Origin: Escherichia coli
GTDB taxonomy: Bacteria > Pseudomonadota > Gammaproteobacteria > Enterobacterales > Enterobacteriaceae
Assembly: GCF_022846255.1 (NCBI RefSeq)
Contig: NZ_AP025682.1
DNA: 64,000 nucleotides
Strand: one strand, 5' to 3'
Shown: piece by piece, positions 25,244 through 59,187 of the stretch
Numbering within the stretch: the first letter of the stretch is position 1
Layout: every line of letters begins with the position of its first letter
The notes under the pieces: model-generated
Databases searched by the model: none
What the model saw: only the letters and a program-made list of their open reading frames with translations
Told to the model about the DNA's origin: nothing
Position numbers and translations under genes: made by a program

Positions 25244-25318
25244 CATTAATACCTCTATTAATCAAACTGAGAGCCGCTTATTTCACAGCATGCTCTGAAG
25301 TAATATGGAATAAATTAA

Positions 25319-26404
25319 GTGAAGATACTTGTTACTGGGGGCGCAGGATTTATTGGTTCTGCTGTAGTTCGTCACATTATAAATAATACGCAGGATAGTG
25401 TTGTTAATGTCGATAAATTAACGTACGCCGGAAACCTGGAATCACTTGCTGATGTTTCTGACTCTGAACGCTATGTTTTTGAACATGCGGATATTTGCGA
25501 TGCTGCTGCAATGGCGCGGATTTTTGCTCAGCATCAGCCGGATGCAGTGATGCACCTGGCTGCTGAAAGCCATGTGGATCGTTCAATTACAGGCCCTGCG
25601 GCATTTATTGAAACCAATATTGTTGGTACTTATGTCCTTTTGGAAGCGGCTCGCAATTACTGGTCTGCTCTTGATGGCGACAAGAAAAATAGCTTCCGTT
25701 TTCATCATATTTCTACTGACGAAGTCTATGGTGATTTGCCTCATCCTGACGAAGTAAATAATAAAGAACAATTACCCCTCTTTACTGAGACGACAGCTTA
25801 CGCGCCTAGTAGTCCTTATTCCGCATCAAAAGCATCCAGCGATCATTTAGTCCGCGCGTGGAAACGTACCTATGGTTTACCGACTATTGTGACTAACTGT
25901 TCGAATAACTACGGTCCTTATCACTTTCCGGAAAAATTGATTCCACTAGTAATTCTTAATGCTCTGGAAGGTAAGGCATTACCTATTTATGGCAAAGGGG
26001 ATCAAATTCGTGACTGGCTGTATGTTGAAGATCATGCGCGTGCGTTATATACCGTAGTTACTGAAGGTCAAGCGGGTGAAACCTATAACATTGGCGGACA
26101 CAACGAAAAGAAAAACATCGATGTTGTGCTGACTATTTGTGATTTGTTGGACGAGATAGTCCCGAAAGAGAAATCTTATCGTGAGCAAATTACTTATGTT
26201 GCTGATCGCCCAGGGCATGATCGCCGTTATGCGATTGATGCTGAGAAGATTGGTCGCGAATTGGGATGGAAACCACAGGAAACGTTTGAGAGTGGGATTC
26301 GTAAAACGGTGGAATGGTATTTGGCTAATGCAAAATGGGTTGATAATGTGAAAAGTGGTGCCTATCAATCGTGGATTGAACAGAACTATGAGGGCCGCCA
26401 GTAA
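25319..26404 (+). CDS. rfbB: dTDP-glucose 4,6-dehydratase
   Basis: 361 aa; GTG start; [20 protein letters not shown]ossmann motif. Confidence 0.95.
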
Positions 26405-27303
26405 TGAATATCCTCCTTTTTGGCAAAACAGGGCAGGTAGGTTGGGAACTACAGCGTGCTCTGGCACCTCTGGGTAATTTGATTGCTCTTGATGTTCACT
26501 CCACTGATTACTGTGGTGATTTTAGTAACCCTGAAGGTGTGGCTGAAACAGTCAAAAGAATTCGACCTGATGTTATTGTTAATGCTGCGGCTCACACCGC
26601 AGTAGATAAGGCTGAGTCAGAACCCGAATTTGCACAATTACTCAATGCGACTAGCGTTGAATCAATTGCAAAAGCGGCAAATGAAGTTGGGGCTTGGGTA
26701 ATTCATTACTCAACTGACTACGTATTCCCTGGAAATGGCGACACGCCATGGCTGGAGATGGATGCAACCGCACCGCTAAATGTTTACGGTGAAACCAAGT
26801 TAGCTGGAGAAAAAGCATTACAAGAGCATTGTGCGAAGCACCTAATTTTCCGTACCAGCTGGGTCTATGCAGGTAAAGGAAATAATTTCGCCAAAACGAT
26901 GTTGCGTCTGGCAAAAGAGCGTGAAGAACTAGCCGTTATTAATGATCAGTTTGGTGCGCCAACAGGTGCTGAACTGCTGGCTGATTGTACGGCACATGCC
27001 ATTCGTGTCGCACTGAATAAACCGGATGTCGCAGGCTTGTACCATTTGGTAGCCAGTGGTACCACAACCTGGTACGATTATGCTGCGCTGGTTTTTGAAG
27101 AGGCGCGCAATGCAGGCATTCCTCTTGCACTCAACAAGCTCAACGCAGTACCAACAACTGCCTATCCTACACCAGCTCGTCGTCCACATAACTCTCGCCT
27201 TAATACAGAAAAATTTCAGCAGAATTTTGCGCTTGTATTGCCTGACTGGCAGGTTGGTGTGAAACGCATGCTCAACGAATTATTTACGACTACAGCAATT
27301 TAA
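26404..27303 (+). CDS. rfbD: dTDP-4-dehydrorhamnose reductase
   Basis: 299 aa; overlaps the rfbB stop (ATGA-type junction). Confidence 0.95.
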   Translation: MNILLFGKTGQVGWELQRALAPLGNLIALDVHSTDYCGDFSNPEGVAETVKRIRPDVIVNAAAHTAVDKAESEPEFAQLLNATSVESIAKAANEVGAWVIHYSTDYVFPGNGDTPWLEMDATAPLNVYGETKLAGEKALQEHCAKHLIFRTSWVYAGKGNNFAKTMLRLAKEREELAVINDQFGAPTGAELLADCTAHAIRVALNKPDVAGLYHLVASGTTTWYDYAALVFEEARNAGIPLALNKLNAVPTTAYPTPARRPHNSRLNTEKFQQNFALVLPDWQVGVKRMLNELFTTTAI

Positions 27304-27360
27304 TAGTTTTTGCATCTTGTTCGTGATGGTGGAGCAAGATGAATTAAAAGGAATGATGAA

Positions 27361-28239
27361 ATGAAAACGCGTAAAGGTATTATTTTAGCGGGTGGTTCTG
27401 GTACTCGTCTTTATCCTGTGACTATGGTCGTCAGTAAACAGCTATTACCTATATATGATAAACCGATGATCTATTATCCGCTTTCTACACTGATGTTAGC
27501 GGGTATTCGCGATATTCTGATTATTAGTACGCCACAGGATACTCCTCGTTTTCAACAACTGCTGGGTGACGGTAGCCAGTGGGGCCTGAATCTTCAGTAC
27601 AAAGTGCAACCGAGTCCGGATGGTCTTGCGCAGGCATTTATTATCGGTGAAGAGTTTATTGGTGGTGATGATTGTGCTTTGGTACTTGGTGATAATATCT
27701 TCTACGGTCACGACCTGCCTAAGTTAATGGATGCCGCTGTTAACAAAGAAAGTGGTGCAACGGTATTTGCCTATCACGTTAATGATCCTGAACGCTATGG
27801 TGTCGTTGAGTTTGATAAAAACGGTACGGCGATCAGCCTGGAAGAAAAACCGCTACAACCAAAAAGTAATTATGCGGTAACCGGGCTTTATTTTTATGAT
27901 AACGACGTTGTCGAAATGGCGAAAAATCTTAAGCCTTCTGCCCGCGGTGAACTGGAAATTACCGATATTAACCGTATCTATATGGAACAAGGGCGTTTAT
28001 CTGTTGCCATGATGGGGCGTGGTTATGCGTGGTTAGACACGGGGACACATCAGAGCCTGATTGAGGCAAGCAACTTTATTGCAACAATTGAAGAGCGTCA
28101 GGGGCTGAAAGTTTCCTGCCCGGAAGAAATTGCTTACCGTAAAGGGTTTGTTGATGCTGAGCAGGTGAAAGTATTAGCTGAACCTCTGAAAAAAAATGCT
28201 TATGGTCAGTATCTGCTGAAAATGATTAAAGGTTATTAA
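27361..28239 (+). CDS. rfbA: Glucose-1-phosphate thymidylyltransferase
   Basis: 292 aa; [16 protein letters not shown] motif. Confidence 0.95.
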
Positions 28240-28243
28240 TAAA

Positions 28244-28792
28244 ATGAACGTAATTAAAACAGAAATTCCTGATGTACTGATTTTTGAACCGAAAGTTTTT
28301 GGTGATGAGCGTGGTTTCTTTTTTGAGAGCTTTAACCAGAAGGTTTTTGAGGAAGCTGTAGGCCGCAAAGTTGAATTTGTTCAGGATAACCATTCGAAGT
28401 CTAGTAAAGGTGTTTTACGCGGGCTGCATTATCAGTTGGAACCTTATGCACAAGGAAAATTGGTGCGTTGCGTTGTCGGTGAAGTTTTTGACGTAGCTGT
28501 TGATATTCGTAAATCGTCATCGACTTTTGGCAAATGGGTTGGGGTGAATTTATCTGCTGAGAATAAGCGGCAATTGTGGATTCCTGAGGGATTTGCACAT
28601 GGTTTTTTAGTGCTGAGTGAGACGGCGGAGTTTTTGTATAAGACGACAAATTATTATCATCCTCAGAGTGATAGAGGAATAAAATGGGATGATCCAAGTA
28701 TCAATATTTCATGGCCAGTCGATTCACAAGTGCTGCTATCAGCTAAAGATAATAAGCATCCTCCATTAACAAAGATTGAAATGTATAGTTAA
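28244..28792 (+). CDS. rfbC: dTDP-4-dehydrorhamnose 3,5-epimerase
   Basis: 182 aa; cupin-fold RmlC (FGDERGFFFESF..., RGLHYQ). Confidence 0.93.
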   Translation: MNVIKTEIPDVLIFEPKVFGDERGFFFESFNQKVFEEAVGRKVEFVQDNHSKSSKGVLRGLHYQLEPYAQGKLVRCVVGEVFDVAVDIRKSSSTFGKWVGVNLSAENKRQLWIPEGFAHGFLVLSETAEFLYKTTNYYHPQSDRGIKWDDPSINISWPVDSQVLLSAKDNKHPPLTKIEMYS

Positions 28793-28823
28793 GATCACGA
28801 TAAATCTTGGAAGGGTTGCAAAA

Positions 28824-30062
28824 TTGAATAAAATAGTGAGCAAAAGTGAAATAAGGAACGTAATCCACAATGCTGGCTATATGATGATTACTCAGATAGC
28901 TTTATATGTTGCACCATTATTTATACTGAGTTATCTGTTAAAAACACTGGGGGTTGCACAGTTTGGTAATTATGCCTTAATACTATCAATCGTTGCATAT
29001 TTACAGATTATAACGGATTATGGTTTTTCTTTTAGTGCAAGTCGTGCGATCTCACAGAATAGAGAGGACAAAGAATATATATCAAAAATTTATCTGTCAA
29101 CTATGACTATCAAGTTGGCGATATGCGCTTTCTTATTCTTATTGCTCATGCTATTTTTAAATCTTTTGCCTGTGCAAGCTGAATTAAAACAAGGAATATT
29201 ATATGGATATCTTCTTGTAATAGGAAATACTTTCCAACCACAATGGTTTTTCCAAGGTATCGAAAAATTAAAAATCATAGCCCTTTCTAATGTTATATCA
29301 AGATGCGCCGCGTGTTTACTTGTATTTATCTATGTGAGGAATAGCGAGGATTTACAAAAAGCACTTTTAGTACAGTCACTTCCATTAGTAATTTCTGCGA
29401 TTGGATTAAATATATTTATATTGAAATATATCAATATTATTTTTCCGGAAAAAAAATTATTTAAGGTAATTTTAAAAGAAGGTAAGGATTTTTTTCTTGC
29501 ATCACTTTATTCTGTTATTCTCAATAATAGTGGCATTTTTCTATTAGGGATTTTTACTAATCCTGTTATTGTTGGTGTATATGCCGCCGCTGAAAAGATA
29601 GTCAAGGCCGTATTGTCGCTATTTACACCACTGACGCAAGCTATATATCCTTATAATTGTCGTAAGTTTTCACTATCCGTATTTGACGGCATTGAGGCAG
29701 CAAAAAAAACTGGTATACCAATTATAATTTTAGCATTTATAGCTGCTGTTATCGTTGCAATTACCTTACCTGTTGCAATCGACTATCTTAATTTTCCAAA
29801 AGAAACAATTTTTGTAGGTCAAATATTAAGTGCATGGATCTTTTTTGGTGTTCTTAATAATGTATTCGGCATTCAGATATTGAGTGCATCAGGAAGAAGT
29901 AAAATATATAGTAGGATGGTATTCGTATCAGCGCTTATAACATTACTTTTGATTACTCTATTATTGCAGTTTTGTAACGCCACTGGAGTGGCATGTGCAA
30001 TATTATTGGGTGAAATGTTCTTATCAATATTGTTACTTAAGCGATATAAAAAAATAATTTAA
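28824..30062 (+). CDS. wzx: O-antigen flippase (Wzx)
   Basis: Polytopic membrane protein in an AT-rich gene; start uncertain: TTG at 28824 (MNKIVSKSEIRNV...) preferred over the track ORF start at 28776, which overlaps rfbC. Confidence 0.8.
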   Translation: MNKIVSKSEIRNVIHNAGYMMITQIALYVAPLFILSYLLKTLGVAQFGNYALILSIVAYLQIITDYGFSFSASRAISQNREDKEYISKIYLSTMTIKLAICAFLFLLLMLFLNLLPVQAELKQGILYGYLLVIGNTFQPQWFFQGIEKLKIIALSNVISRCAACLLVFIYVRNSEDLQKALLVQSLPLVISAIGLNIFILKYINIIFPEKKLFKVILKEGKDFFLASLYSVILNNSGIFLLGIFTNPVIVGVYAAAEKIVKAVLSLFTPLTQAIYPYNCRKFSLSVFDGIEAAKKTGIPIIILAFIAAVIVAITLPVAIDYLNFPKETIFVGQILSAWIFFGVLNNVFGIQILSASGRSKIYSRMVFVSALITLLLITLLLQFCNATGVACAILLGEMFLSILLLKRYKKII

Positions 30063-30071
30063 GGAATAGTT

Positions 30072-31199
30072 ATGAAGAAGTTATTATTAGTGTTCGGTAC
30101 TAGGCCTGAAGCAATAAAGATGGCCTCTATCATTGAATTATTAAAAAAAGATTGTAGATTCGAATATAAAATATGTGTGACAGGCCAACATAAAGAGATG
30201 CTTGATCAAGTTATGCAAGTATTTGATGTTAAACCTGATTATAATTTACGGATTATGCAGCCTGGGCAAACATTAGTATCTGTAGCAACAAATATACTCT
30301 CACGGTTAAGTGAAGTTTTAATTATAGAAAAGCCAGATATTATACTTGTGCATGGGGATACAACGACTACCCTTGCTGCTACTTTAGCTGGGTATTACCA
30401 CCAAATAAAAGTTTGTCATGTGGAAGCAGGATTAAGAACAGGGGATATTTACTCTCCTTGGCCTGAAGAGGGCAATCGTAAAGTTACAGGGGCATTAGCA
30501 TGTATTCATTTCGCCCCAACAGAGAGATCAAAAGATAATCTCCTGAGGGAGGGGGTCAAAGTAAATAATATATTTGTAACGGGTAATACCGTCATCGACT
30601 CTTTATTTATTGCAAAAGATATCATAGATAATGACCCTAATATAAAGAACGCTTTACATAATAAATTTAATTTTCTTGATAAAAGCCGACGAGTAGTACT
30701 TATAACAGGTCATCGAAGAGAAAATTTCGGGAAAGGTTTTGAAGATATATGCTTTGCAATAAAGGAATTAGCTTTCATTTATCCTAATGTAGATTTTATT
30801 TATCCGGTGCATCTTAATCCCAATGTAATGGAACCAGTACATCGTATATTAGATAATATATGTAATATTTACCTTATTGAGCCCTTGGATTATTTGCCTT
30901 TTGTTTATTTAATGAATGAGTCATATTTAATATTGACTGATTCAGGGGGGATACAAGAAGAAGCGCCTTCGTTAGGTAAACCGGTTTTGGTTATGCGTGA
31001 TACTACTGAACGCCCTGAGGCGGTTGAGGCTGGTACTGTTGTATTAGTGGGGACTTCTAAGATAAAAATAGTAAATAAAGTAACGGAGCTATTAAACAAT
31101 GCTGATATCTACAATGCTATGTCTCTGTTACATAATCCATATGGCGATGGAACAGCTGCTCAAAAAATTCTTAATGTGCTCGCCCAAGAGCTAATTTAA
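30072..31199 (+). CDS. UDP-N-acetylglucosamine 2-epimerase (non-hydrolysing, WecB/MnaA-like)
   Basis: 375 aa; N-terminal LLVFGTRPEAIKMA and HGDTTTTLAATLAGYY, HVEAGLRTGD motifs. Confidence 0.85.
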   Translation: MKKLLLVFGTRPEAIKMASIIELLKKDCRFEYKICVTGQHKEMLDQVMQVFDVKPDYNLRIMQPGQTLVSVATNILSRLSEVLIIEKPDIILVHGDTTTTLAATLAGYYHQIKVCHVEAGLRTGDIYSPWPEEGNRKVTGALACIHFAPTERSKDNLLREGVKVNNIFVTGNTVIDSLFIAKDIIDNDPNIKNALHNKFNFLDKSRRVVLITGHRRENFGKGFEDICFAIKELAFIYPNVDFIYPVHLNPNVMEPVHRILDNICNIYLIEPLDYLPFVYLMNESYLILTDSGGIQEEAPSLGKPVLVMRDTTERPEAVEAGTVVLVGTSKIKIVNKVTELLNNADIYNAMSLLHNPYGDGTAAQKILNVLAQELI

Positions 31200-31213
31200 T
31201 TTAAGCTAAAAAT

Positions 31214-32278
31214 ATGTTATTAATTATTGCTGATTATCCAAACGAAATGAATATGCGCGAGGGAGCTATGCAACGAATAGATGCGATAGACTCTCTCATT
31301 CGAGATCGCAAGCGAGTGTATTTGAATATTTCATTCAAAAAGCATCTAGTTCGCTCAAATAGTTCCTTTAATAATGTTATAGTTGAAAATCTAAATGCAA
31401 TTATTCACAGAAACATCATAAAACAGTACATGCAAAAATCAACAACTATATATGTTCATTCTGTTTATAATTTATTAAAGGTTATAACGCTCATTGATCT
31501 AAAAAAAACAATTCTTGATATACATGGTGTTGTACCGGAAGAACTTTTGGCAGATAATAAAAAATTACTTAGTAAAGTATATAACATGGTGGAAAAAAAA
31601 GGTGTCCTTGGATGCAAAAAATTAATACACGTCAGTACAGAAATGCAAAAACACTATGAAGCAAAATATGGAGTAAACTTGGCTGAAAGGTCAATAGTGC
31701 TCCCGATTTTTGAATATAAAAATATAACCCAATCGCAAAACAAATGGACAGAAAATAAAATACGAAGTATCTATCTTGGAGGATTACAAACATGGCAAAA
31801 TATTGATAAAATGATTCAAATTTGTGATGACACAGTGATAAACAATGAAGCAGGTAAGTATGAATTCAACTTTTTCATCCCACAGAGTAACTTGGAAGGG
31901 TTTATAGATAAATATTCGTTAAAATTACATAATATCAATGCTAATGCATCTACGCTATCACGTGATGAAGTAATTCCCTTTCTAAAAGAATGTCATATTG
32001 GTTTTGTATTGCGCGATGATATAATAGTAAACAGAGTTGCGTGCCCTACAAAATTGGTTGAATATTTAGAGTGTGGTGTCGTTCCAGTTGTGCTCTCCCC
32101 ACTTATAGGTGATTTTTATTCGATGGGATATCAATACATTACTACAGAGGAAATGGCTAACAGAAGTATAAGTTTGTTGGATCTTGAAAAAATGGCTGCA
32201 CATAATTTACAAATTTTGACTTCTTATCAGAAGAGAACCTACAAGGCACAGAAAGAACTTATTGCTCAACTGTGCTGA
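31214..32278 (+). CDS. Putative O-antigen glycosyltransferase (GT-B/GT4-like)
   Basis: 354 aa; AT-rich; C-terminal PTKLVEYLECGVVPVV resembles the GT4 donor-binding region; position in the O-antigen cluster. Confidence 0.6.
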   Translation: MLLIIADYPNEMNMREGAMQRIDAIDSLIRDRKRVYLNISFKKHLVRSNSSFNNVIVENLNAIIHRNIIKQYMQKSTTIYVHSVYNLLKVITLIDLKKTILDIHGVVPEELLADNKKLLSKVYNMVEKKGVLGCKKLIHVSTEMQKHYEAKYGVNLAERSIVLPIFEYKNITQSQNKWTENKIRSIYLGGLQTWQNIDKMIQICDDTVINNEAGKYEFNFFIPQSNLEGFIDKYSLKLHNINANASTLSRDEVIPFLKECHIGFVLRDDIIVNRVACPTKLVEYLECGVVPVVLSPLIGDFYSMGYQYITTEEMANRSISLLDLEKMAAHNLQILTSYQKRTYKAQKELIAQLC

Positions 32279-32329
32279 ATTTTTTACATATATAAAATTA
32301 TGTAAGCATATCGCTGGTCAGGTAATTGT

Positions 32330-33334
32330 ATGCGTATCAAATATAAAGATAACGGTTATATATTATGTTTTCTATTATGTTTCATTTTGAGCTACTTAGT
32401 TTTACTCAAATCTGACTACTTTCCTGCTGATTTTCTGCCATATACAGAAATATACGATGGGACATACGGAGAAATCAATAATATTGAGCCTGCCTTTTTA
32501 TATTTAACACGGTTGTTTCATTATTTAAATTTCCCCTATATATTTTTTGCAATGTTAGTTTGTGCCTTATGTTTAAGTTGGAAAATAAAATATGCAAGAA
32601 AAATAATTAAAGATAGTTATATATATTTATTCTTGTATGTATATGTATCATTTTATGTGTTTTTGCATGAAATGACTCAATTGCGCATAGCAATTGCAGT
32701 CACTATGTGCTATGTGTCGGTTTATTATTACTTTTATAAAAATTGTATTAAACATGCACTGCCATGGATGGTGTTGGCTATTTTGTTTCATTACAGCGCC
32801 TTGCTTTTATTTATGTCATTATTTATATACAGTTATAGGAGGTTATTAATAGTAATTATAGGGTTTGTAATATGTATGAGCTTTTTAAACGTGTATGCAG
32901 ATACAATTGCACTATATTTGCCAAATGAAAAAATAGTAAATTATTTATATAGTATTTCATCATCATTAGACAATAGAAATGATTTGGCAATATTCAACCT
33001 GAATAATATAATATTTTTATCAATATTTATTTTGATCTTTTATCTTAGCCGATATATAAAATTAAATGATAATGAGGCGAAGTTTATTAAGTATGTGCAA
33101 TGTTCAGGAATATTAGCCTTTTGTATTTTCTTTCTGGCTAGTGGAGTCCCGGTCATTGCTTATCGAACTGCAGAGTTGCTGCGAATATTTTATCCGATGG
33201 CTTTAGTATTAATCCTTTCGCATATAAAAAATAATAATATGCGTTATTTTATTGCAGTCATTATAGTTATCCTTTCAGGCTTAATGTTGTTTATAACACT
33301 AAGGGCTGTATCAATAGTTGGTCAAGGATTATAA
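32330..33334 (+). CDS. wzy: Putative O-antigen polymerase (Wzy)
   Basis: 334 aa, very hydrophobic with about 10 predicted transmembrane helices; very AT-rich; typical position in the cluster. Confidence 0.7.
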   Translation: MRIKYKDNGYILCFLLCFILSYLVLLKSDYFPADFLPYTEIYDGTYGEINNIEPAFLYLTRLFHYLNFPYIFFAMLVCALCLSWKIKYARKIIKDSYIYLFLYVYVSFYVFLHEMTQLRIAIAVTMCYVSVYYYFYKNCIKHALPWMVLAILFHYSALLLFMSLFIYSYRRLLIVIIGFVICMSFLNVYADTIALYLPNEKIVNYLYSISSSLDNRNDLAIFNLNNIIFLSIFILIFYLSRYIKLNDNEAKFIKYVQCSGILAFCIFFLASGVPVIAYRTAELLRIFYPMALVLILSHIKNNNMRYFIAVIIVILSGLMLFITLRAVSIVGQGL

Positions 33335-34295
33335 AATGAATGTTGCTATTTTGTTGTCTACGTATAATGGCGAAAAATATTTAGAGGAACAACTGGATTC
33401 ATTGCTGCTTCAAAGTTATCAGGATTTTGTAGTGTATATCCGTGATGACGGATCATCTGATAGAACTGTAAATATAATAAACCAATACGTAATGAAAGAT
33501 AACAGATTTATTAACGTGGGTAATTCAGAAAATCTTGGTTGTGCTGCTTCGTTTATTAATTTATTAAGAAATGCTTCAGCCGATATTTATATGTTTTGTG
33601 ACCAAGATGATTATTGGCTTCCGAATAAATTACAGCGTGCTGTGGATTATTTTTCGGCTATTGATCCTTTACAACCTACCTTGTATCATTGCGATCTAAG
33701 CGTTGTTGATGAAAAACTTAATATTATACAAAATTCATTTTTGCAGCATCAGAAAATGTCAGCGTATGATTCAATGAGAAAAAATAATCTTTTCATACAA
33801 AATTTTGTTGTTGGTTGTTCATGTGCTGTTAATGCTTCACTTGCGGAATTTGTTCTTTCGCGAATTGGAGAGCAGCATGTAAAAATGATAGCTATGCATG
33901 ACTGGTGGTTAGCCGTGACTGCAAAACTTTTTGGTCGAATCCATTTTGATAATACTCAAACGATTCTTTATCGACAACATCAGGGCAATGTATTAGGTGC
34001 AAAATCATCAGGTATGATGCGTTTTATTCGATTAGGATTAAATGGGCAAGGGATTTCGCGAGTAGTATCTTTTAGAAAAAAAGTTTGTGCGCAAAATAAG
34101 CTTCTTTTAGATGTCTATGATAAAGAGTTAAATCTTGAGCAAAAAAAATCTATCAGGCTTGTAATTGAGGGCCTTAAAGAGAACTCTTCAATTGCTGACC
34201 TTTTAAAATGTTTCTATCATGGTAGCTATATGCAAGGTTTTAAACGTAATCTTGCCTTAATATATTCAGTTCTTTACACAAAAAAAAGAAGATAG
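33318..34295 (+). CDS. Glycosyltransferase family 2
   Basis: NVAILLSTYNGEKYLEEQLDSLLLQSY...IRDDGSSDRT GT2 signature; start could be the ATG at 33336. Confidence 0.8.
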   Translation: MVKDYKMNVAILLSTYNGEKYLEEQLDSLLLQSYQDFVVYIRDDGSSDRTVNIINQYVMKDNRFINVGNSENLGCAASFINLLRNASADIYMFCDQDDYWLPNKLQRAVDYFSAIDPLQPTLYHCDLSVVDEKLNIIQNSFLQHQKMSAYDSMRKNNLFIQNFVVGCSCAVNASLAEFVLSRIGEQHVKMIAMHDWWLAVTAKLFGRIHFDNTQTILYRQHQGNVLGAKSSGMMRFIRLGLNGQGISRVVSFRKKVCAQNKLLLDVYDKELNLEQKKSIRLVIEGLKENSSIADLLKCFYHGSYMQGFKRNLALIYSVLYTKKRR

Positions 34296-34304
34296 TGTAT
34301 CCTT

Positions 34305-35369
34305 ATGAAAAAAATTGCTATTATCGGTACTGTTGGCATACCAGCATCATATGGCGGATTTGAAACATTAGTTGAAAATTTAACAAGATACAATTCCTCG
34401 GGAGTTGAATATAATGTTTTTTGTTCATCGTTTCACTACAAATCCCACCAAAAAAAACATAATGGGGCCCGTTTAATTTATATTCCGCTTAAAGCCAATG
34501 GATGGCAGAGCATTGCGTATGACATAATTTCGTTAGCATATTCTATTTTTTTGAAGCCTGATGTGATTCTGATTTTAGGGGTTTCTGGTTGTTCATTTTT
34601 GCCTTTCTTCAAACTCTTAACACGCGCTAAGTTTATTACTAATATTGATGGCTTGGAATGGCGAAGAGATAAATGGAATTCAAAAGTGAAACGTTTCTTA
34701 AAATTTTCAGAAAAAATCGCAGTTCAATATTCGGATGTCGTTATTACGGATAATGAGGCAATTTCTGAGTACGTTTTTAACGAGTATAATAAAGATAGCC
34801 GAGTTATTGCCTATGGAGGGGATCATGCATGGTTAAATACTGAGGATGTATTTACAACAAGAAATTATAAAAGCGATTACTACCTTTCTGTATGTCGTAT
34901 CGAACCCGAAAACAATGTAGAATTAATTTTAAAAACATTTTCAAAGCTAAAATATAAAATAAAATTTATTGGAAATTGGAATGGCAGCGAGTTTGGAAAG
35001 AAACTTAGGCTGCATTATTCTAACTATCCAAATATTGAAATGATTGATCCGATTTATGATCTTCAACAATTATTTCACTTACGAAATAATTGCATAGGAT
35101 ATATACATGGTCATTCGGCTGGAGGAACAAACCCTTCTTTAGTCGAGGCAATGCATTTTAGTAAACCTATATTTGCATATGATTGTAAGTTTAATAGGTA
35201 CACTACTGAAAATGAAGCATGTTATTTTTCTAATGAATCTGACCTCGCAGAGAAAATCATAATGCATTGTGAGCTATCATTAGGTGTCTCTGGCACGAAA
35301 ATGAAAGAAATTGCTAACCAGAAATACACTTGGAGACGAATAGCAGAAATGTATGAGGATTGCTATTAA
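34305..35369 (+). CDS. Glycosyltransferase (GT1/GT4 with DUF1972-like N-terminus)
   Basis: 354 aa; N-terminal KIAIIGTVGIPASYGGFETLVENL; last gene before gnd. Confidence 0.75.
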   Translation: MKKIAIIGTVGIPASYGGFETLVENLTRYNSSGVEYNVFCSSFHYKSHQKKHNGARLIYIPLKANGWQSIAYDIISLAYSIFLKPDVILILGVSGCSFLPFFKLLTRAKFITNIDGLEWRRDKWNSKVKRFLKFSEKIAVQYSDVVITDNEAISEYVFNEYNKDSRVIAYGGDHAWLNTEDVFTTRNYKSDYYLSVCRIEPENNVELILKTFSKLKYKIKFIGNWNGSEFGKKLRLHYSNYPNIEMIDPIYDLQQLFHLRNNCIGYIHGHSAGGTNPSLVEAMHFSKPIFAYDCKFNRYTTENEACYFSNESDLAEKIIMHCELSLGVSGTKMKEIANQKYTWRRIAEMYEDCY

Positions 35370-35473
35370 CTCTGTTAAACTTCAAATCTTTTACAATATA
35401 TGGCATGACTATAAGCGCATTAATTGTTTTTCAAGCCGCTCTCGCGGTGACCACCCCCTGACAGGAGTAAACA

Positions 35474-56938: not shown

Positions 56939-57268
56939 ATGGAAACTACCAAGCCTTCATTCCAGGACGTACTGGAATTTGTTCGTCTGTTCCGTCGTAA
57001 GAACAAACTGCAACGTGAAATTCAGGACGTTGAGAAAAAGATCCGTGACAACCAGAAGCGCGTCCTGTTGCTGGACAACCTGAGCGATTACATCAAGCCA
57101 GGGATGAGCGTTGAAGCAATCCAGGGCATCATCGCCAGCATGAAAGGTGACTATGAAGATCGCGTTGACGATTACATCATCAAAAATGCCGAGCTCTCCA
57201 AAGAACGCCGCGATATCTCCAAAAAGCTGAAAGCTATGGGCGAAATGAAAAACGGCGAAGCGAAGTAA
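56939..57268 (+). CDS. yeeX: DUF496-family protein
   Basis: 109 aa from [18 protein letters not shown]...; the track ORF carries an N-terminal extension. Confidence 0.85.
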
Positions 57269-57282
57269 TTCCTGTTTTATTC

Positions 57283-57310
57283 AATGAGGGTTGCCCGGCA
57301 ACCCTCATTG
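57283..57310 (+). terminator. Hairpin terminator after yeeX
   Basis: caatgagggttgcccggcaaccctcattg perfect inverted repeat. Confidence 0.7.
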
Positions 57311-57368
57311 CTCATTGATTCTTATCTGTGTATCACCGTCATCATTCTCATCTGAGAACCTATCGAAA

Positions 57369-57590
57369 TTAGCGGCAGCCTTCTTCTGTATGCAGCAAGG
57401 CAAAAAGTTCTGTAACTCCATTGTTATTAACCGCACTGGTTACTAACACGTTGTGCGCTCCAGCTTCCCGTAACCAACATTTCACCAAAGATATTTGTTC
57501 CATGCTGGCTAAATCTGCTTTGGTTACTACTCCAATGACCGGGTGATTCATGGCCCGGTAGGGCGTTTTTACCTCTAATTCCTGCTTCAG
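57369..57590 (-). pseudogene. yoeF: C-terminal fragment of a PduV/EutP-family GTPase gene (yoeF-like remnant)
   Basis: Minus-strand translation ...PVIGVVTKADLASMEQISLVKCWLREAGAHNVLVTSAVNNNGVTELFALL carries the G4 motif TKAD but the N-terminal P-loop half is missing; the 5' side is replaced by IS66-type sequence. Confidence 0.6.
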
Positions 57591-57599
57591 CGCTGAGAT

Positions 57600-57781
57600 T
57601 CCTGCTTGTTGCCGGAAAAGCAGGCACCTGCCGTCTGAACGGTATCGATCCGGAAGCGTATCTGCGCCATATTCTGAGCATACTGCCGGAATGGCCCTCC
57701 AACCGTGTTGACGAACTCCTGCCATGGAACGTAGTTCTCACCAATAAATAAGCGTCAATATGGTGCTCCGTTGACGCTTAC
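57600..57781 (+). mobile_element. 3' remnant of an IS66-family insertion sequence (transposase C-terminus plus terminal inverted repeat)
   Basis: Plus-strand frame encodes ...AGKAGTCRLNGIDPEAYLRHILSILPEWPSNRVDELLPWNVVLTNK* (stop at 57749..57751), followed by an element end ...gttgacgcttac (reverse complement GTAAGCG..., IS66-type terminus) at 57770..57781. Confidence 0.7.
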
Positions 57782-57982
57782 TTTAATCCGTTTTCTGAGC
57801 TTAGATTTTTCTGTTCCTACCCAGACCGTGGATTTGGAATTCATTTTTTGTCAGGTCAATGCTAATCGTTAAAACGGCCATAACGCACCTCCACTGGAAG
57901 GTTTATCAGTAATATCCTACCGTTGCTTCATGGTCGGGGCGTCCATTCCATTATTATCGGTTTTCCTTTCTGTTTATAAATG

Positions 57983-58010
57983 AAAACGCCAGCTGTATTC
58001 AGGCTGGCGT
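57983..58010 (-). terminator. Rho-independent terminator downstream of yeeW
   Basis: Minus strand gacgccagcctgaatacagctggcg hairpin followed by TTTTC. Confidence 0.65.
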
Positions 58011-58165
58011 CAGGGGAAATGAAGCCTGTTGAGTGAGATTCACCGGTTCTGGTGCAGAAGCTGCAGATGGCGCAGGGTAAGGACATCTTCTCTTGCCTGC
58101 TTAATACAGGACAACAGTGCTGTTTCTGTGGTTAATGGCACTATACCCTGCATCACTGCATTGTC

Positions 58166-58360
58166 TTACAGCAACTGGTGAGGGCTGGCATAAGTTGCCG
58201 GTGTTTCGGTAGAGTCACGGTCATCCACCACGCGGAGTGAATAACCGTTTTCAGCGGCCTTATTAATCAGTTCAGTGATATTAACACCATCAATGTCAAC
58301 GACAATGTGCCCCATATCCAGCGCCTGTACGTTAACGCTGTCGGCTTCCAGTGTCATCAT
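58166..58360 (-). CDS. yeeW: CP4-44-type small protein YeeW
   Basis: 64 aa (MMTLEADSVNVQALDMGH...); its ATG overlaps the stop of the cbtA reading frame. Confidence 0.75.
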   Translation of the reverse strand: MMTLEADSVNVQALDMGHIVVDIDGVNITELINKAAENGYSLRVVDDRDSTETPATYASPHQLL

Positions 58361-58730
58361 TTCGCCTCCGGATACTTACCCAGGGTAATGTTATTTACCG
58401 TTCTGTAATTGTCGCGGGTCATCAGGCCGGTCGCCCTGCGAGCCCGGAGGATATCGATGCTGTTTATTAACTGAGAGCGGGTACAGGCGCTGAATCCCGG
58501 CTGGTCGGTAGCACCAGCGCGTATTTTTCCACGAGAAAGTTCACCGCATCACACAGTGAAATGCCTGCCTCAATATGCTGCTCAATCACACGTTCATCGG
58601 CAAAAGGTGTGTCATTCTGTGTGAGGCCATAGTGCTGGTCCAGCAGTCGGGACAGCAGTATCTGCCAGATTTCAACAGGAGACGGGCGAGAACTGGCCGC
58701 CTGCCCGGGTAATACAGGTAATGTTTTCAT
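58357..58730 (-). pseudogene. cbtA: CbtA (YeeV) toxin gene, frameshifted
   Basis: The first 71 codons ([35 protein letters not shown]...LVEKYALV) are followed by a frame change near 58510..58512; the -1 frame continues [51 protein letters not shown] and ends on the TGA overlapping the yeeW ATG, while the current frame stops at 58467. Confidence 0.75.
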
Positions 58731-58818: not shown

Positions 58819-59187
58819 TTAATTTTTCATTTCGGGCGTCGGATAAACAGCCAGATAAACGTAACCACAACTGCTGAGGGTATCGGCTTTGCAGGTCAGC
58901 CCTTTTGCATACAGCGTGACGGTATGCTGATGGCGGGGATTCAGTTCACCGCTGGTGAGCATGAGCTCCAGTTGTTTCATCAGCAGCGGAAAGGCCTGGT
59001 CCAGGTGGTACGCATCTGCATCGCTGAACAGGCCTCTGATACCGGCGCGGTCGGCAAGGTAATGCAACCGGTTACCCTCCTGCACCAGACGTGCCCCGAA
59101 ACAGGGCGTCACGGTGCAGGGCAGCCCCCACCAGGGGCGGTCGTGATTGTCGTCGGGAAGTGTTGTCCCGGGGAGTGTGTCTGACAC
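58819..59187 (-). CDS. cbeA: CbeA (YeeU) antitoxin
   Basis: 122 aa (MSDTLPGTTLPDDNHDRPWWGLPCTVTPCFGARLVQEG...). Confidence 0.85.
   Translation of the reverse strand: MSDTLPGTTLPDDNHDRPWWGLPCTVTPCFGARLVQEGNRLHYLADRAGIRGLFSDADAYHLDQAFPLLMKQLELMLTSGELNPRHQHTVTLYAKGLTCKADTLSSCGYVYLAVYPTPEMKN

Follow-up and report, generated by a model that had tools for sequence, protein, structure and literature searches.

What is the sequence that separates tmaR from the CP4-44-type island in Escherichia coli, and by what events was it assembled? The question was examined in a window of 64,000 nucleotides (contig NZ_AP025682.1 of assembly GCF_022846255.1), a term used here for the whole stretch of DNA that was analysed. 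An earlier note, made from the letters of this DNA, had read the place as an IS66-family remnant fused to a truncated PduV/EutP-like GTPase gene, with one junction near 57590..57620 that marked an old insertion and deletion event. Comparison with other E. coli genomes makes it very probable that the region is a non-functional mosaic scar, in which the 3′ end of pduV, a stub of a DUF4942 gene and pieces of IS66 and IS110 elements were left behind after a deletion of the pdu operon. The locus is the K-12 yoeD/yoeF relic, which is already annotated and represents ordinary genome archaeology.

Genomic context of the scar

The window carries, in this order, the colanic-acid and O-antigen clusters, gnd, ugd, wzzB, the his operon, yeeZ, yeeY and plaP, followed further to the right by sbcB, dacD, sbmC, yeeA, tmaR and a CP4-44-type island. 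The tmaR gene (yeeX) lies at 56940..57268 on the plus strand, and the scar marks the exact border between the core chromosome, on the tmaR side, and the island. No tRNA gene is found where the island adjoins the pdu operon. Elsewhere in the window, the O-antigen cluster from galF to gnd (about 25250..35460) has no megablast match to SMS-3-5, and its flanks are 92–99.8% identical; this segment is the expected serotype-specific hypervariable stretch.

K-12 MG1655 is 98.8% identical to the window over 57201–58200, without gaps. The pseudogene yoeD (b4642) corresponds to 57623..57751 and yoeF (b4538) to 57369..57725, so that the identification with this K-12 pair made in the earlier note holds to the exact coordinates. 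The K-12 annotation has the same junctions as the window, but the chimeric nature of yoeF and the DUF4942 and IS110 fragments go unmarked there. The refinements to this annotation are the identity of pduV itself, the in-frame DUF4942::pduV joint at ATGAA, and the nesting of the IS66 end within an IS110 pseudogene. Two further refinements are the three-part, chimeric make-up of yoeF and the recurrent loss of pdu from this position.

The pduV remnant

The 3′ remnant of pduV occupies 57369..57551 on the minus strand and comprises codons 88–147 and the stop codon of the gene for the 147-aa PduV GTPase, as delimited by alignment with FEX669 and by the PduV-EutP profile (PF10662). Its translation, MNHPVIGVVTKADL...EEGCR followed by the stop, retains the G4 motif TKAD (within VVTKAD); in alignment to FEX669 PduV, residues 1–87 with the P-loop GPSQCGKT, G2 and the G3 motif DTPG are missing. 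The minus-strand ORF 57369..57725 matched PF10662 with E=1.7e-12 (47.7 bits, cutoff 21), which bears out the C-terminal GTPase fragment with TKAD that had been proposed on this strand. The match spans only ORF residues 57–112, equivalent to profile positions 86–142 of 143. The NCBIfam model TIGR02528 was matched at positions 86–141 of 142 with 41 bits, far under its whole-protein cutoff of 138, and the intact FEX669 PduV covers PF10662 positions 1–142 of 143 with 185 bits.

In FEX669, tmaR is adjoined by an intact 147-aa pduV, and pduU, pduT, pduS, pduQ and pduP follow. The 351 nt at 57201..57551 are 98.9% identical to this pduV locus, and the identity collapses at 57552; the alignment of the minus-strand fragment to PduV that had been suggested earlier therefore succeeds over codons 88–147. 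An intact pduV-pduU-pduT end beside tmaR is present in 644 of 5426 complete E. coli genomes (~12%), and pdu-positive strains (FEX669, NC101 and LF82 among them) carry pduV in the same position and orientation as the remnant. The stub region with its flank (57270..57600) was found in 5417 of the 5426 genomes. Since its position, flanks and hairpin are those of intact pduV, the fragment is an ortholog of pduV rather than of eutP. By this synteny and the 98.9% identity, the remnant and the intact pduV that closes the pdu operon are alleles of one another; the family named in the earlier note stands, and the restriction to "PduV/EutP-like" can be dropped. Compared with intact pduV, the window keeps codons 88–147 alone, and all upstream pdu genes are gone. 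Because G1, G2, G3 and these upstream genes have been lost, no GTPase or microcompartment role is possible for the stub. In Salmonella enterica, pdu presumably lies beside yeeX as well. PGAP calls a 60-aa "EutP/PduV family" CDS at the stub, and in thousands of genomes RefSeq carries the labels "EutP/PduV family microcompartment system protein" and "transposase domain-containing protein (incomplete)".

A perfect, GC-rich hairpin with a 13-bp stem and a 3-nt loop is located at 57282..57310 (−21 kcal/mol, z = −4.9), between the convergent tmaR and pduV genes. It is kept in all junction types, pdu-positive and pdu-negative, and is probably the shared bidirectional terminator of tmaR and the truncated pduV (pduV′). 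A terminator scan based on T-runs did not flag this hairpin.

The DUF4942 stub and the pduV joint

Contrary to the fusion supposed in the earlier note, the pduV homology does not abut the IS66 fragment; a 71-nt stub of a DUF4942 island gene (57552..57622, minus strand), equivalent to about codons 38–61 of ~280, lies between the two. In EC-129, the spacer sequence runs on to a DUF4942 start codon, and a search with sensitive blastn matched the spacer, together with the ~130 nt that follow it in EC-129-type genomes, to the 5′ ends of DUF4942 genes in paralogous CP4-type islands at 73–77%. One such island (L017) is 76% identical in nucleotide sequence to window 57544..57620. At the protein level, 59 aligned positions in the N-terminal part of the EC-129 ORF show 64% identity (E=1e-18) to the DUF4942 proteins encoded by paralogous islands. 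The Pfam domain itself (PF13708) covers residues 87–276 of the paralog, and the retained stub, which reaches codon 61, falls outside it; the EC-129 fusion ORF has no match to PF13708. The DUF4942 name is consequently owed to the N-terminal alignment together with synteny. A reading of the 71-nt spacer as the 3′ tail of the IS110 element was also considered and was ruled out by the blastn matches to DUF4942 5′ ends.

The synteny is that of CP4-type islands (CP4-44, CP4-6, CP4-57 and relatives), which share the order yeeS-yeeT-cbeA-cbtA-DUF5983(yeeW)-DUF957-DUF4942. The same order leads to the scar, and the spacer is the 5′ part of DUF4942 at the place expected from it, downstream of DUF957. In comparison with intact CP4-type islands, the window retains the last 30 codons of DUF957 and ~24 codons of DUF4942, and the island end proper is deleted. 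The end of the annotated CP4-44 cryptic prophage in K-12 maps to window 57552, outside the pduV stub.

To examine the joint between the stub and pduV, the bases of the window were set against those of FEX669 pduV, of two DUF4942 paralogs and of the fusion ORF in EC-129. The two parent sequences share the five nucleotides ATGAA (57547..57551, minus strand): DUF4942 reads GGGCC-ATGAA-ACAG, pduV reads CGTCA-ATGAA-TCGC, and the window reads GGGCC-ATGAA-TCAC. At the common Met codon, the reading frame passes uninterrupted from DUF4942 codon ~61 into pduV codon 88. From these bases we infer a deletion by illegitimate recombination, of which a 5-nt microhomology joint would be the signature. In EC-129 (locus L003, 4810..5175), the product is a 121-aa ORF, in which DUF4942 residues 1–61 with their native start are fused in frame to PduV residues 88–147. 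The "EutP/PduV family" label that PGAP gives to this 121-aa ORF in ~600 genomes (WP_001280454.1 and relatives) is an annotation artefact.

The IS66 remnant

The plus-strand frame at 57587..57751, translated as SALRFLLVAGKAGTCRLNGIDPEAYLRHILSILPEWPSNRVDELLPWNVVLTNK and ending in ...GTCRLNGIDPEAYLRHILSILPEWPSNRVDELLPWNVVLTNK before the stop, matches DDE_Tnp_IS66_C (PF13817) with E=8.9e-16 over profile positions 4–39 of 39. The IS66-type identity proposed for it is confirmed by this match, which, like that of the GTPase fragment, lies far beyond chance; its extent needs correction, since 42 rather than roughly 45 residues are IS66-derived and the frame closes with ...NVVLTNK instead of ...NVVL. 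The tnpC 3′ remnant, the last 42 codons and the stop (yoeD in K-12), occupies 57623..57751, as delimited by PF13817 and by alignment with ISEc23. It is followed at 57752..57781 by the 3′ non-coding end of the element with its right inverted repeat (IRR, about 57758..57781). Together, 57623..57781 corresponds to the final 159 nt of an ISEc23-like element, comprising TnpC residues 496–537, the stop codon and the IRR, and the ISEc23 TnpC C-terminus agrees with the window in 41 of the 42 residues.

The element end, ...GACGCTTAC, halts at 57781 with its terminal base (...CGCTTAC). The complement of 57758..57781, GTAAGCGTCAACGGAGCACCATAT, begins with GTAAGCG and aligns with the ISEc23 IRR, in agreement with the element end that had been read on the complementary strand. 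The reference was an intact 2532-bp copy of ISEc23 (locus L018, 828..3359) with tnpA-tnpB-tnpC, whose left inverted repeat (IRL) GTAAGCGTAAACTGACCGCCGTAT pairs with the IRR. Homology to IS66 copies spans exactly 57623..57781 across many unrelated contexts on plasmids and chromosomes. The matching copies include ISEc23, IS682 and unnamed ones, the last 159 nt of ISEc23 being ~96% identical and some unnamed plasmid copies closer (best 98.7%). Compared with ISEc23, the left 2373 nt (94%) with tnpA, tnpB, the DDE domain and the left end are absent, and the remnant cannot transpose. Of the two flanks that would carry the 8-bp target-site duplication, a single one (TTTAATCC...) is retained, the other having been deleted with the left end. 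The IS66-remnant arrangement is present in 3334 complete E. coli genomes (~61%).

The IS110 relic and the EC-129-type arrangement

To the right of the IS66 end lies a second transposase relic, which the earlier note, reading only IS66 and a GTPase, had missed. The putative head of an IS110-family transposase pseudogene occupies 57782..57881 on the minus strand, with codons 1–25 (MAVLTISIDLTKNEFQIHGLGRNRK), a frameshift, and a continuation to about codon 33. By tblastn, residues 1–25 of intact Photobacterium and Aeromonas IS110 transposases align to window 57881..57807 (E=6e-5), with the frameshift directly after. The 32-aa piece of the window by itself has no profile match in Pfam or NCBIfam, and its assignment to IS110 is suggested by collinearity with the pseudogene of EC-129. 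The latter aligns collinearly with residues 1–332 of the Photobacterium/Aeromonas transposase, and its ORF pieces match NCBIfam transpos_IS110 (NF033542) at positions 91–120, 194–238 and 247–342 of 343, as well as Pfam Transposase_20 (PF02371). The nearest intact IS110 relatives found are about 58–60% identical in protein. Unlike an active member of the IS110 family (RNA-guided DEDD), the window has the head alone, and the full EC-129-type copy is frameshifted with internal stops. A search of the EC-129 locus against Rfam returned no bridge-RNA-like or other RNA family at E<=0.1.

The limits of this element were set indirectly. All megablast copies of the IS110-type sequence in E. coli are at this locus and are degraded; the ends were therefore defined against uninterrupted paralogous islands. 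In two such islands (L016 and L017), homology to the window begins only at 57953 and extends to the right, with the DUF4942 start codon abutting this point. Directly upstream of that start codon sits the IS110-type element (~1.37 kb), and 57882..57952 (minus strand) is its 5′ non-coding end, the outer limit being approximate to a few bases. The IS66 end cuts the IS110 gene after ~codon 33, where the window reads ...KSKLRKRIK/VSVNGAPY (the slash marking the cut) and EC-129 reads ...KSKLRKRIKRSLMPVFFAN.

EC-129 and LR-72 preserve the locus in a form that IS66 has not touched. Both keep 57201..57622 and 57782..58200 at 98–99% identity, and 1311 nt take the place of the 159-nt IS66 piece of the window. 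These 1311 nt consist of DUF4942 codons 1–37 and most of the IS110-family transposase pseudogene. The EC-129-type version, with the same pduV joint and no IS66 at the site, is carried by 603 genomes. H116 and H118 differ merely by an IS100 inserted in the IS110-type copy, and H225 has an extra ISEc22. In PapRG-04-4 and EcPNK006 (L008 and L009), an IS100 (IS21 family) is inserted at the equivalent of L003 position 5195, ~15 nt away from where the IS110-type element is inferred to end on its 3′ side. With IS1, ISEc22, IS30 and IS3 debris found elsewhere (L006 and L015), the interval looks like an IS graveyard or hotspot.

To the right of the IS110 head follow a DUF957 remnant, yeeW, cbtA and cbeA. 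The DUF957 remnant (58043..58132, minus strand) comprises the last 30 of 65 codons and is 80% identical to its paralog; this second truncated island gene lies immediately beyond the IS110 head and points to one more deletion, between yeeW and DUF957. The cbtA toxin gene of the CbtA/CbeA type IV toxin-antitoxin pair (58360..58730, minus strand) is frameshifted at ~codon 74, near 58510, with K-12 residues 1–73 and 75–124 aligning in two frames, and SMS-3-5 cbtA is likewise annotated as "frameshifted". The antitoxin gene cbeA (58822..59187) and yeeW are intact.

Other truncations of pduV at the same site

Genomes outside the two arrangements described above carry pduV truncated in other ways. PBS4 keeps 297 nt of pduV and has no island; a short ORF and cobU-cobS-cobT-ldtA-tRNA-Asn follow the stub. 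The short ORF (locus L011, 4093..4452) encodes a 119-aa "hypothetical protein" between the longer pduV stub and cobU, and may be a cbi/pdu relic, for example the 3′ end of cbiP, marking the other end of an independent deletion. A pduV′-cobUST gene order as in PBS4 has been given in a paper on STEC (PMC5359238). In WB61 the pduV stub is 171 nt longer than that of the window, and the island is joined to it at the position equivalent to window 58115. In Br_178, an IS1 lies at 57360 and the stub is gone. Because the truncations in PBS4, WB61 and Br_178 differ, pdu has been lost at this site several times.

The yoeF reading frame

The 118-aa ORF at 57369..57725 on the minus strand, which appears in the ORF list and is annotated as yoeF in K-12, runs through three of these fragments. 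Residues 1–35 are antisense to IS66, residues 36–58 are derived from the DUF4942 stub, and residues 59–118 form the PduV C-terminus. It might be argued that this chimera (118 aa here, 121 aa in the EC-129 type) is a real expressed gene, such as a domesticated PduV C-terminal peptide. The frame is a CDS in K-12, PGAP predicts a 60- or 121-aa "EutP/PduV family" protein, and the ORF is open in most genomes examined; yoeF is also listed among the uncharacterised y-genes, as a CP4-44 prophage gene (PMC11551758). The N-terminal half, however, is of different origin in different lineages: upstream of the stub, the ORF reads antisense through IS66 in the window, and its EC-129 counterpart reads through DUF4942; no extended protein is thus conserved. 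The stub itself is absent or of other length in Br_178, PBS4 and WB61, and the frame contains no P-loop, G2 or G3.

The variation within the stub was also considered. Eight distinct alleles of the 60 codons differ by 15 nonsynonymous and 4 synonymous changes, at 138.7 nonsynonymous and 41.3 synonymous sites (ratio 3.4), which gives an omega of ~1.1; this is a crude estimate from 11 loci (8 alleles), three of them with intact or longer pduV. The polymorphism of yoeF looks neutral by this measure. A consensus scan of 57200–58100 for promoters and terminators found nothing above chance and no promoter-like site upstream of yoeF on its strand, the only match (57980..57953) being no better than chance. 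The literature on yoeF yielded gene lists or mentions of an uncharacterised CP4-44 gene only, and a search for pduV together with CP4-44 returned nothing specific. With this balance of evidence, an expressed and domesticated yoeF is highly unlikely. The 118-aa ORF is an accidental frame across three unrelated fragments. No function is expected from any piece of the scar, since the stub has no nucleotide-binding motif save G4, the IS66 piece has no DDE domain and the IS110 piece amounts to 33 broken codons. A more elaborate proposal, in which the DUF4942::PduV chimera is translated and retained as a new small protein and the repeated pduV truncations reflect selection for the loss of pdu/cbi instead of drift, appears just as improbable.

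Proposed history of the scar

The ancestral state is still seen in the pdu-positive strains, in which a complete pdu operon runs convergently towards tmaR and closes with the 147-codon pduV. In the first step, an illegitimate-recombination deletion at ATGAA, a mechanism suggested by the shared bases, would have joined DUF4942 codon ~61 to pduV codon 88, with the loss of what remained of DUF4942, of the end of the island and of all pdu sequence that precedes this pduV codon. Either before or after this event, an IS110-family element came to lie just upstream of the DUF4942 start and decayed to a pseudogene. Approximately 600 genomes, EC-129 among them, are found at the stage with the pduV joint, the whole DUF4942 stub and the IS110 body. 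By parsimony, an ISEc23-like element may then have entered the IS110 transposase gene after ~codon 33, with 57781 as the surviving insertion joint. A single deletion with arbitrary end points, also proposed by parsimony, would finally have taken the left 2373 nt of the IS66 element together with the IS110 body and DUF4942 codons 1–37 (1311 nt of EC-129-type sequence). The outcome of this last step would be the arrangement that the window shares with K-12 and ~61% of complete E. coli genomes. The proposed order accounts, with no appeal to coincidence, for the two boundaries that the sequence "replacing" the IS66 piece in EC-129 has in common with it.

The simpler account of the earlier note, in which a single IS66 insertion in or beside the GTPase gene and an associated deletion truncated both IS66 and that gene at one abutting junction, fits the arrangement at first sight: both fragments are 5′-truncated and lie head to head within 71 nt, and IS elements are a frequent cause of adjacent deletions. 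Yet the 71 nt between the fragments come from DUF4942, and instead of one junction near 57590..57620 two sharp ones are found, at 57551/57552 and 57622/57623. The joint at pduV is a microhomology to DUF4942 and not an IS end. Moreover, the ~600 EC-129-type genomes have the identical 57551/57552 joint with no IS66 there, so that the comparison with other genomes upholds a relic at this locus and speaks against a truncation of pduV by IS66. A single IS66-driven event is accordingly very hard to maintain, and the stepwise history with two separate deletions is preferred.

The remaining reading, that the GTPase fragment is CP4-44 cargo or a eutP paralogue brought by mobile elements instead of a native pdu relic, can practically be dismissed even though the K-12 literature counts yoeF as a CP4-44 prophage gene (PMC11551758), because the K-12 CP4-44 boundary at 57552 leaves the stub outside, and the stretch that runs from the fragment through the intergenic region and its hairpin as far as tmaR is 96–99% identical in pdu-positive strains and in island-free strains such as PBS4.

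Significance

Outside annotation hygiene, the importance of these findings is small, and a specialist would meet no surprise in them. The K-12 "protein" YoeF still figures in the uncharacterised y-ome (PMC11551758), although it is a frame over unrelated fragments. The 60- and 121-aa "EutP/PduV family microcompartment system protein" calls of RefSeq at this locus are likewise relics. Beyond annotation, the locus presents an allelic series, with intact pduV in ~12% of genomes, at least three pduV truncations and nested IS110/IS66 debris, which indicates that pdu was once present and was independently lost several times. The loss or reacquisition of cob/pdu in enteric bacteria is a question that Lawrence and Roth are said to have debated in 1996. 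The series bears on this old debate over loss versus reacquisition of the cob/pdu region in enteric bacteria.
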